From contig CM035356.1 of assembly GCA_020137815.1 (NCBI GenBank), positions 7,502,001-7,566,000 of the forward strand: a stretch of 64,000 nt of DNA. The letters run 5' to 3'. The DNA comes from Hormiphora californensis. Its lineage: Eukaryota; Animalia; Ctenophora. Both the position numbers and the translations under genes were made by a program. The notes beneath the pieces are model-generated. The model ran no database searches. It was not told the origin of the DNA and worked only from the letters and a program-made list of their open reading frames with translations. Shown here in pieces: positions 45,301-48,300 of this stretch (position 1 is its first letter; every line of letters begins with the position of its first letter).

Positions 45301-48300
45301 AGGTTTTGTTGGTTACTCTTCCTATTACACGCATCCTTGTACACCATGTAGGGGGTACCTGGGTGGGGAGTGGGGTTCAGAGTGAGCGGGCTGAGAGGAG
45401 CACCATGTAGGGGGTACCTGGGAGGGGAGTGGGGTTCATAGGGGGGGGGGGTAGCTGAGAGGGACGAGGCTGAGTGGGGACTGGGGATTTGTTTTTATGG
45501 GGAGGGGGGGGGGGCACCGAAATCTTGGAGTTAACATTTTTCCAAATCGTAGTGCGGTGACAGAGGATTGAGCAAGGCAAGCGTTAGTTAATGTAGTACC
45601 CGAAAGGATGAATCTAGTAGTAGTAGTGATTTAATACCTGTCTCGACCTGGCTGTCAATGATAGCAAACCACAGTTTTTGTGCCTTGATTGTCTTTCTCT
45701 GTCGTCCCTCCTTCTCGTATTGCTCATACAACTTCTCAAACTCCTCTCCCCACACATTCTCAAGTCCAGGGGACTCGTTAGGACAGAACAGAGACCAGTC
45801 TCCATTGGCTTCAACCTGAATGAAGATATAGGAGTTACCTTGCTCTTGTTTGAACAAACCAAGATTTATGGAGATATTTCTAACCCTCCTTTACACGGAA
45901 AGAGGGTCGAGCAAGGCAAGAGATATCAGTGTGGTTTCACCCAATATAATGTTTGTAATTCAAAATATTTGTAATATTTGTAGTTTGTACCTACCCGTTT
46001 CATGAAGAGGTCAGGAATCCATAGAGCATAGAAGAGATCCCTAGCTCGAGCCTCCTCTTTCCCAGTATTCTTCCTCAAGTCCAGGAAGTCAAACACATCA
46101 GCATGCCAGGGCTCCAGATAAATAGCAAACGAGCCGGGCCGCTGGGAAATATATCAGAGATATATTAGGTGATGGGGTAACGGTGTGGTGAAGGTGTCAT
46201 TGTCAACATAACAGCAGTAACATGCATAAGAGAGAAATTAATGAACAAAAAAGCAAAGAAAGAGAATATATTAATGAACAAAAAAAGCAAAGAAAGACAA
46301 TATATTAATGATCAAAAAGAAAGAGAAGTGAAGGTTGCGGTTACACACATTTCAAGATATTTTTTGTTTTTTAAAATGAAGAGAGACACCCAGTGTACAC
46401 AATGCAATGAAAGAGAGAGAGTAGCGGGTCGGTCAATGTCAATTCACAAAGTGCTGTCCTCATCAATTATTAGCCAGTCAAAGTCTCTACGGTCAATGTC
46501 TCTACTACTCTCAAAGTCTCTACTTACCTTGTTACCTCCTTGATCAACGTATCGAGCTGTATTATTGAATACTCTCAACATGGGCACAAGGCCATTGCTC
46601 GCCCCACCAGTACCCCAAATATAACTACCCTTGGCTCGGATATTGTGCACATTCAGACCAATACCTAGTGAGTATTGCATAGTTATATATTGACGTCATT
46701 TCAACACTCAAACTCACAAGGAAAGTTTCTATAGTAAATTACAAATCACACACACCTCCAGCAGATTTGCTAATCATGGCACAGTTTTTCAGCGTCTCAT
46801 AAATCCCGTCTATGCTGTCTTCTGTCATAGTGAGAAGGAAACAACTGAAACAAAGTGTACACCGGGTGTGAGTGAGAGAAAACACGTGATATTGTTTTGT
46901 TTTTAGAATTACCCAACCTAGAACTGCAGTCGGAACCCTATTTACCGAAACCCCGATTTACCGAGAGGATAACCCCCCCCCCCCCCCGATATAGGAAATT
47001 AAAAGTATTTGACCCCGATATACTGGGCACCCTAATTAACCGGGCAACCCCCCCCCCCTCGAGTATTATACCGGTAAATCGTACTGTACAACCCTTACTC
47101 TCCAAAAGTTCACATCTCGTATAAATTTTTCCAAATTTTCAGGACATGTGTGTGTAACCGCAGGCTCCTTTCCATGATTATATCACACTTCATCACACCG
47201 CAGTGTGATATGGCACATGATATCACACCGCAGTGTGACTGTACATGCACACACCTGCCCTACCTTTCCACCCTGATCTACATATCGAGTAGAGGTGTTG
47301 AACACTTGTAATAGAGGGACAATACCGTTACTGTGACCATTCGATCCAGCTATGAAGCTACCATTGCTCCGTACAGCACTGAGACAGAGACCCACCCCAC
47401 CAGCATGGGCAGCAATTGTTGCACATTGTTTTAGGGTGTCGTATATATTGTCCATACTGTCCCCGCATTGCATTAGGAAGCAACTGAGAGAGGGAGGGGG
47501 AGTCAAATAGTAGAATCAGGGGAGGGGCCAGGGTGTCCGGGGGAGTCAATTAGTGGGGTCAGGAGAGGGTAAAGAATTCAAGGGCCTGGGACTCAAGGGT
47601 TATGGCACACATCTGCATTTTGAGGAAAGGTTCGGACATTTTTGGTTGCGATGAATAAAGTTTTTTAGGTTTTGCCGCTATTGAATTCTAGACGCGCAGC
47701 CTTGCTGCTGAAAAGATACACTTTTTACTTACAATCATTGTTCGGTCCCGCGCGTCTCTACAACTCTTCCCAGCGCGGGAACACAACCCGATATTTCCTA
47801 TCCCACCCGATTCAACATTTGGTAATCCCTCCCCTCAAGGCTGCATTGGATTATCCCCATTCCCCCACATTAACATACCTGGCTAGCTGTGGTCTCACAG
47901 TCCCAGAGTTGAATAGAGTCGGAGAGGCATGAGTGAAGAATTTCTCAGACATCAGATTGTAGGTCTCAATCGCAGCGTCGATATCGTTCCAGTGAATACC
48001 TGAAATGAAAGGAGGGGATAATTGTGGTAAACATCATAAACATCATAACCCCCTGATATAGAAAACAATTATGAAGGAACAAATCTGTAGTACAGAGTGC
48101 ATCCCGAGTCTTACCTAGAGAAACCCTCATGAGCATGTGTTGGGGTCGTTCTACAACCTTTCCGCCAATCTTCAGTAGATACGTCTTCTCAAGGGTCTTA
48201 ATACCGAAGTAGTTGTAGGAGAAATCCCTGGGTGAGTGTTTGTATTTATGAAGGAGCAGTGTTTGTATTTATGAAGGAGCAGTGTTTGTATTTATGAAGG

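Follow-up and report, generated by a model that had tools for sequence, protein, structure and literature searches.

Ribonucleotide reductase determines how the four deoxynucleoside triphosphates (dNTPs) are balanced, and hence the mutation rate, and the locus described here raises the question of whether one gene can supply this enzyme with two interchangeable specificity sites. The locus lies in a stretch of 64,000 nucleotides (nt) from the ctenophore Hormiphora californensis (assembly GCA_020137815.1, contig CM035356.1, positions 7,502,001 to 7,566,000), termed the window, and all coordinates below are those of the window. A multi-exon RRM1 gene, coding for the R1 protein of ribonucleotide reductase, spans about 57447-42318 on the minus strand, and between a shared upstream and a shared downstream exon it carries two versions of the segment that corresponds to residues 218-292 of human RRM1, termed cassette A and cassette B. 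An initial annotation, made from the letters of the sequence, had proposed that this one gene makes two mutually exclusive R1 isoforms, and that an old copy of the specificity-site and dimer-interface segment has been kept under selection. Both proposals are supported, the first by frame tests, RNA contigs and annotated isoforms. The reading toward which the sequence comparisons lean, by a modest degree, is that two exclusive homologous cassettes are both spliced and that A likely specifies an active R1 with retuned effector feedback.

Anatomy, splicing and conservation of the two cassettes

Cassette A is a single exon of 220 nt (47483-47264), and cassette B consists of two exons, B1 of 89 nt (46844-46756) and B2 of 137 nt (46664-46528). 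The coordinates, GT-AG sites and absence of stops initially reported all held on re-check: A, B1 and B2 are each flanked by AG and GT and free of stops in the RRM1 frame. A matched residues 218-290 of human RRM1 (E 9.5e-25), and this alignment is the source of the residue numbers used throughout. Between A and B, 41/73 aligned residues and 130/220 nt are identical, in line with the roughly 42 of 75 residues counted at first. The two segments are adjacent and homologous, with matching phases, and when exons were joined in silico at their coordinates, starting with exon 48227, the frame stayed open to the terminal CxxC with A alone (673 codons) and with B alone (675 codons). All six other combinations (neither, both, A with B1, A with B2, B1 only and B2 only) ran into a premature stop, as had been predicted for the use of both cassettes or neither. 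An alternative donor proposed at 47255 is in frame, yet no read or homologue supports it, and it was rejected on the ground that read-through open reading frames (ORFs) from other lineages diverge past the donor.

Two RNA runs were used, X1, an oligo-dT aquatic metatranscriptome, and X2, from a more distant relative, whose status as RNA is a guess. The junction 47879>47483 was found in one X1 contig (188 nt, depth 5.9), in which 47879-47980 is followed directly by 47398-47483, a canonical intron of 395 nt having been removed. This contig differs from the window at no position in 86 nt of A and at 9 in 102 nt of the shared upstream exon (Fisher p 0.004), and because the differences are so few it is assigned to a close relative or the same species. 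The corresponding B junction, 47879>46844, was looked for as well, and an X2 contig covering B1 has loose ends that continue into the upstream exon and into B2, that is, upstream>B1>B2. Each version was thus seen spliced (upstream>A in X1, upstream>B in X2) and none was seen with both, and nine Mnemiopsis and three Bolinopsis models likewise carry one each. The junction from A to the downstream exon is taken from the Mnemiopsis and Bolinopsis annotations only; no contig in X1 or X2 covers the 3′ part of A and its downstream junction, and X2 yielded no A piece at 80% identity, neither of which is evidence of absence. Because A is spliced in an RNA contig and belongs to an annotated isoform in two other ctenophores, it is neither a chance frame nor a local assembly duplicate. 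Two other X1 signals were set aside: an apparent joint 46599>47421 was taken as a misalignment (21-nt side, non-canonical ends), and loose ends at 46129 belong to RRM1 of another organism.

Whether the A exon is absent or disrupted in related species was checked, and it is present in Mnemiopsis, Bolinopsis and others. The Mnemiopsis leidyi gene ACHWQZ_G002745 has nine annotated isoforms, five with A and four with B, and among the RefSeq models of Bolinopsis microptera X3 (XP_063684533.1) carries A, and X1 and X2 carry B; both sets come from automated annotation, in which the A and B isoforms sit unremarked. PMC11797021 concerns another accession, and no link between it and the ACHWQZ annotation could be made. 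Further A exons occur in ORFs from European Nucleotide Archive (ENA) contigs, namely P0001 and P0255, similar in sequence to the window, P0002, similar to Mnemiopsis, P0253 and P0307, similar to Bolinopsis, and P0254/P0308 and P0256 from two further lineages; their position in the tree points to a ctenophore source for these ORFs. P0002 and P0307 read through A, the intron and B1 in the same order as in the window, where the A-B1 intron is 419 nt long; its inferred length is 206 nt in P0002 and 65 nt in P0307. The open frame and both splice edges of A are kept in at least five lineages, and in the tree a single clade (100/99) unites all 10 distinct A rows and another (98/95) the five B rows. 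No further A-type lineage appeared among the 150 best matches of a profile search over 1.84 billion representatives, in which only the known A rows stood above the generic RRM1 level. When metagenome contigs were searched with the A alignment, 0/216 candidates were confirmed, and a search for the spliced junction of A with a degenerate pattern hit six metagenome and two viral loci, none of A type. A second RRM1-like model in Bolinopsis, P0124 (XP_063683530.1), has a DnaJ-like N-terminus and a C-terminal R1 part, and is either a partial duplication or an annotation artefact.

Between Mnemiopsis and Bolinopsis, A is identical at 68/73 residues (93%), as in the catalytic core. Between the window and these two species A is 68-71% identical (50/73 for Mnemiopsis) and B 93% (70/75 for Mnemiopsis), a comparison which indicates that A is constrained, yet evolving faster than B. 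All five full-length proteins recovered from Logan contigs have B, which suggests that B is the major form. The greater divergence of A between distant lineages and the prevalence of B in assembled transcripts would suit a leaky duplicate that is under relaxed selection and has no function of its own, but the frame and splice edges persist in the five or more lineages, the Mnemiopsis and Bolinopsis A exons are as alike as the core, and the diagnostic residues described below are fixed in 14/14 A proteins; we regard a leaky duplicate as very improbable.

Since the edges and phases of A are exactly those of B, and since 28 ORFs outside the A set enter an intron at A's downstream point, tandem duplication of an ancestral single exon would be the simplest origin of A. 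B is a single exon in another lineage (P0251), and likewise in non-A ORFs. B also has residues of its own: all five ctenophore B rows have W263 and G266 in loop 1, at the second of which the background mostly has N266, as kept by A; even the ordinary form is therefore atypical in loop 1. Both copies have thus diverged, and the duplication is likely older than the sampled ctenophore lineages. Approximately unbiased (AU) tests on a 75-column tree, using 34/53 rows after 19 long-branch or near-duplicate rows were left out, rejected neither A and B as sisters (p 0.286) nor a grouping of A with three environmental or viral rows that have the short loop (p 0.456). The latter result, the short loop 2 of environmental and viral R1s and the frame breaks in three upstream exons, by which the assembly is imperfect, would be compatible with an A that was captured from a virus or microbe, or that is an artefact of the assembly. 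This explanation is nevertheless extremely improbable in view of the edges and phases shared with B, the downstream intron position that recurs in the 28 non-A ORFs, the order A, intron, B1 in independent contigs, and the profile search, in which only known A rows exceeded the generic level among the best 150. Eight environmental or viral R1s with a short loop 2 (L001-L008, positions 1001-1529) were recorded separately, and loop 1 is very divergent in several of them.

Residue changes in cassette A and their predicted effect

Ten A rows were compared with 98 distinct background segments, in which 42 positions are at least 90% conserved. Every A row keeps 30/42 of these positions, including D226, R256, G264, S269, G271, P274, Y285, D287 and Q288, and every A row deviates at 230, 242, 253, 275 and 283. 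The canonical specificity residues D226, R256, D287 and Q288 are present in A, and R293 is supplied by the shared downstream exon. The retention of C218, D226 and R256 noted at first was confirmed, and Y285, D287 and Q288 are also kept (D226, R256, Y285, D287 and Q288 in 8-10 of the A rows covering them). M228, S265, Q277 and the loss of residue 291 (10/10 rows) are fixed in A and rare in the background, as is a cysteine two residues upstream of D226 (8/8 rows reaching it); S270 occurs in 7/10 A rows. The initial statement that A has lost K243 holds for 9/10 rows and is overstated, as P0256 keeps this lysine. Scoring of diagnostic residues covered 364/450 proteins; A242, L275, Q277 and T283 occur together in 14/14 scored A proteins, and the 350 others have at most one of them.

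The positions concerned can be placed on solved structures. In human R1 the phosphates of the effector are bound by K243, with R256 at the gamma-phosphate and D226 at the deoxyribose; the base is relayed through D287 and Q288, and dATP gains one more contact from the additional loop-2 residue (PMC5819950). Eukaryotic R1s have a loop 2 one residue longer than that of E. coli R1, which uses the same mechanism as the human enzyme where the two were compared (PMC4728125). The initial annotation had found loop 2 one residue short in A and had suggested that the two isoforms could differ in dNTP-effector logic or dimer partners. The first point stands as an observation, residue 291 being absent from 10/10 rows, but was overstated, the length being that of E. 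coli; a different effector logic does not follow from the loop, since human R1 and an R1 with a loop of that length share their specificity mechanism in the respects compared (PMC4728125, PMC5819950), and a short loop alone does not imply new rules.

Because C218, D226, R256, Y285, D287 and Q288 are kept and R293 follows downstream, the A enzyme would be expected to bind dNTP effectors and to turn over, and an AlphaFold2 model of the Mnemiopsis A isoform P0245 has the fold of a normal R1 (predicted local distance difference test, pLDDT, 86; template modelling score 0.90 and root-mean-square deviation 1.3-1.8 Å to human RRM1); folded without an alignment, this protein reached pLDDT 33. The changes at 228, 242-244, 265, 275, 277 and 283 and the lost 291 may weaken or shift the effector read-out and reshape the dimer helices. 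A yeast screen for dNTP imbalance found 19 positions in this segment, S242, M275 and T282 lie in dimer helices, and the alleles S242T, K243E, and I262V,N291D each had low dATP with raised dCTP, dTTP and dGTP (PMC6326808). Seven to eight of the 19 positions are changed in A and one to two in B. By analogy with the yeast alleles at 242, 243 and 291, the A enzyme might tilt pools so that dATP is low and dGTP high, or its response might come at different effector concentrations. B would be the major housekeeping R1 and A a minor, regulated form.

Several results weigh against retuned feedback or against parts of the case for it. RNA support in this species group is one metatranscriptome contig at depth 5.9, with the A>downstream junction uncovered. 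The short loop 2 of A is of E. coli length, and E. coli R1 obeys standard rules (PMC4728125); a motif like this loop was also found in eight loci (six metagenome, two viral). K243 is retained in P0256, and Q stands at 243 in 49/259 scored sequences. The 7-8/19 yeast-screen positions changed in A are no enrichment, since A differs from B at 32/73 overall, and several of those positions were found only in double mutants, with substitutions unlike A's (PMC6326808). The P0245 fold came from an alignment mostly of B-type sequences. The tree neither shows nor rejects A and B as sisters (AU p 0.286), and at depth A diverges faster than B (window versus Mnemiopsis, 50/73 against 70/75, with 394/438 in the core).

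It is unlikely, though worth serious weight, that A instead obeys the usual specificity rules and is set apart mainly by how its dimers assemble, by stability or by overall activity, as a minor second R1, comparable to yeast Rnr3 though produced by splicing, whose changes compensate one another. The fixed changes at 242, 275, 277 and 283 lie in or adjoin dimer helices, and loop 2 reads bases chiefly via backbone atoms, with the same rules at E. coli length (PMC4728125). The retention of D226, R256, Y285, D287 and Q288 in 8-10 covering rows points the same way. M228, the loss of K243 (9/10), S270 (7/10) and the lost 291, by contrast, fall in the effector pocket and speak for altered read-out. 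Positions 228 and 270 are here taken to be effector-pocket residues.

An A form that is poorly active or inactive, regulating B by heterodimerising or by competition for R2, or with a non-catalytic role, is improbable. In its favour, RRM1 here apparently also yields tails that lack the CxxC, a motif indispensable for regenerating the R1 active site by re-reduction (PMC6382339), and the Bolinopsis A model X3 has no ATP cone. On the other hand, all catalytic and substrate-latch residues in and beside A are kept, the predicted fold is normal, and Mnemiopsis models link A to a full ATP cone and a CxxC tail, although these may be combinatorial predictions.

Known systems and control of cassette choice

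Among eukaryotic class Ia R1s (human RRM1, yeast Rnr1) the whole gene and fold find their counterpart, B being near-standard and A having the core effector and catalytic residues; A differs from them in having neither the extra eukaryotic loop-2 residue nor, in most lineages, K243. E. coli NrdA shares the loop-2 length of A (PMC4728125), but A is otherwise of eukaryotic type, with human and yeast enzymes as its best solved-structure matches, and for this reason the loop length is most simply explained as a reversion. The yeast Rnr1/Rnr3 pair also provides one cell with a major and a minor R1, Rnr3 being normally low and induced by genotoxic stress (PMC7192613); there two genes are involved, whereas here one gene swaps 73-75 residues. 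The closest working analogy appears to be PKM1/PKM2, in which homologous exclusive exons carry an effector site and oligomer interface and an effector-binding lysine is present in one form only (PMC7954323). That is another enzyme, its switch is measured and the present one predicted, and here one cassette is split by an intron. The word "ribonucleotide" is absent from the main text of PMC7954323.

No paper was found that describes this arrangement or another alternative exon for the specificity site of ribonucleotide reductase, in a literature search that left subscription journals mostly uncovered. The initial annotation, which knew of no such arrangement in animal RRM1 genes, was right in so far as papers go, but the arrangement is present in the Mnemiopsis leidyi and Bolinopsis microptera annotations. 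The locus holds a real, conserved and apparently undescribed splicing switch, of a kind already known, in an enzyme for which none was found in print. Single changes in this R1 segment suffice to make yeast a mutator. A second segment that is long kept and selected by splicing would amount to a redesign, natural and compensated, of both specificity site and dimer interface, with the rest of the protein left identical. A and B would form a clean pair with which to probe loop-2 length, K243 and the four-helix bundle in specificity, and also the tuning of dNTPs by splicing, and Mnemiopsis is cultured in laboratories, which puts such tests within reach.

Both cassettes or neither would lead to a premature stop, and competing stems in the introns may govern the choice. 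Two nested inverted repeats enclose B1-B2, one pairing 47162-47149 with 46349-46336 (14/14) and the other, I7, pairing 46869-46855 with 46400-46386 (14/15). None of 300 shuffles gave a helix as long as the perfect 14-bp one, and no longer helix occurs in the 120 intron pairs of the gene. Both nested stems are in the minimum free energy and centroid structures of a 1161-nt fold and have probability 0 in a 1781-nt fold, in which A's splice sites pair. A further repeat, I14, overlaps the upstream arm of the first and could instead hide the A donor (pair probability in a 1.8 kb fold 0.74 at 37 °C and 0.27 at 15 °C). The predicted RNA-structure switch is not robust to the choice of folded window; as models, the intron stems fit a switch for cassette choice. 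In Dscam1 and human ATE1, exclusive splicing reportedly works through competing RNA structures, and the overlapping complementary intron sites predicted here could similarly hide either cassette. Steric exclusion may be another way to exclusivity in the lineage with the 65-nt intron.

Exon map, alternative ends and neighbouring elements

The features of the gene are listed in Table 1. The exon translations contain the hallmarks of a class Ia R1, namely C218, the N-x-C-x-E motif, the second redox cysteine, the tyrosine pair and the C-terminal CxxC; for N-x-C-x-E, the second redox cysteine and the tyrosine pair, we presume their usual roles in R1. One downstream exon had its best matches in Mnemiopsis leidyi (92%) and Bolinopsis microptera (90%), with the remaining eukaryotes below 82%. 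Over 438 core residues the window is 90% identical to Mnemiopsis (394/438) and 89% to Bolinopsis, and the latter two are 93% identical to each other. The N-terminal ATP-cone exons of the window show 72-97% identity, but have frame breaks as assembled, and are intact in Mnemiopsis and Bolinopsis. The breaks fall in exons 1b, 3 and 4, and stretches rich in homopolymer runs occur at 8001-16000 and 28001-32000; the breaks are likely assembly errors. The cassette region has independent support despite them. One RRM1 exon has a second copy of its acceptor and opening bases, 59 nt upstream (45348-45417, minus strand), and the open model uses only the downstream copy.

Table 1. Coordinates of the RRM1 exons and of candidate control elements in the window
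Feature	Position	Strand	Basis or remark
First coding exon 1a, ordinary ATP-cone start, 19 nt	57429..57447	-	ATG and GT donor; by-eye match to N-terminus of Mnemiopsis P0244
Candidate alternative first exon 1b, longer N-terminus	56783..56892	-	One base out of frame as assembled
Exon 2	55943..56031	-	tblastn 90% to P0244 residues 7-36
Exon 3, edges approximate, frame break as assembled	55349..55519	-	tblastn matches in two frames
Exon 4, frame break as assembled	48377..48517	-	Translation stops early
Exon 5	48115..48227	-	RRM1 exon of gene model
Shared upstream exon, phase 2 donor	47879..47999	-	RNA: linked to A in X1, to B1 in X2
Cassette A, alternative exon for residues 218-292, 73 residues	47264..47483	-	Spliced 5′ junction in X1; orthologous exons in Mnemiopsis, Bolinopsis and ENA contigs
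Bases just past A donor, complementary to 47154-47141; candidate stem hiding A donor	47248..47261	-	Inverted repeat I14, 12/14
Candidate selector, pairs with A donor region or 46349-46336	47141..47162	-	Predicted; depends on folded window
B1 acceptor region, complementary to 46400-46386	46855..46869	-	I7; in 1161-nt fold, absent from 1781-nt fold
Cassette B exon 1 (B1)	46756..46844	-	X2 contig; loose ends run into upstream exon and B2
Cassette B exon 2 (B2)	46528..46664	-	95.7% to Mnemiopsis P0244 residues 247-292
Downstream arms of both nested inverted repeats around B1-B2	46336..46400	-	Inverted repeats and folds
Shared downstream exon, phase 0, starts at R293	45995..46141	-	Exon translation and open frame
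Nine more constitutive exons, catalytic barrel and tyrosine pair	43179..45815	-	Open frame; several joints in X1 and X2
Candidate alternative last exon, 121 codons, Q/P/G-rich, without CxxC	42747..43112	-	AG acceptor, in frame, stop
Ordinary last exon, C-terminal CxxC	42318..42449	-	Joint 43179>42449 in X1 contig

Candidate alternative exons were also found at both ends of the gene. Candidate exon 1b would change the start of the ATP cone, and at its junction Mnemiopsis P0241, P0243, P0246 and P0248 show an alternative N-terminus of greater length. At the junction of the candidate last exon 43112-42747, the tail of 4/9 Mnemiopsis isoforms is N/Q/P-rich and has no CxxC. This candidate last exon has a short internal repeat and its Mnemiopsis counterpart is 94 residues long, the two tails having been compared by composition only. 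Neither 56892-56783 nor 43112-42747 was seen in the window's RNA data (X1, X2), and no AATAAA or ATTAAA occurs within 760 nt downstream of the latter. These sequence comparisons suggest that alternative first and last exons of RRM1 are conserved as well, one last exon being without CxxC. A bolder extension, tentative and somewhat unlikely, is that ctenophores build a combinatorial R1 family from one gene, in which all three modules of control are swapped, namely the ATP-cone start, the specificity site together with its dimer helices, and the redox tail, A having its own effector rules and a preferred partner, so that splicing would reset the dNTP balance in particular cells or stages. If true, this would be a mode of control undescribed for ribonucleotide reductase in the papers searched.

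Four further ORFs were recorded in the window, all on the minus strand. An intact ORF of 1243 codons (50048-53779) lies inside RRM1 intron 3, on the same strand as RRM1, and resembles what we take to be a non-LTR (long terminal repeat) retrotransposon, with reverse transcriptase and C-terminal endonuclease-like motifs; a tandem repeat array at about 54000-54600, in the same intron, adjoins its 5′ end. An ORF of 1180 codons (1794-5336) is presumably a retroelement with endonuclease and reverse transcriptase. An intronless ORF of 615 codons (37800-39647) seems to resemble NOT3, a subunit of CCR4-NOT, and another intronless ORF (61122-62414), which we assume to be sulfotransferase-like, is apparently nested in an intron of another same-strand gene.

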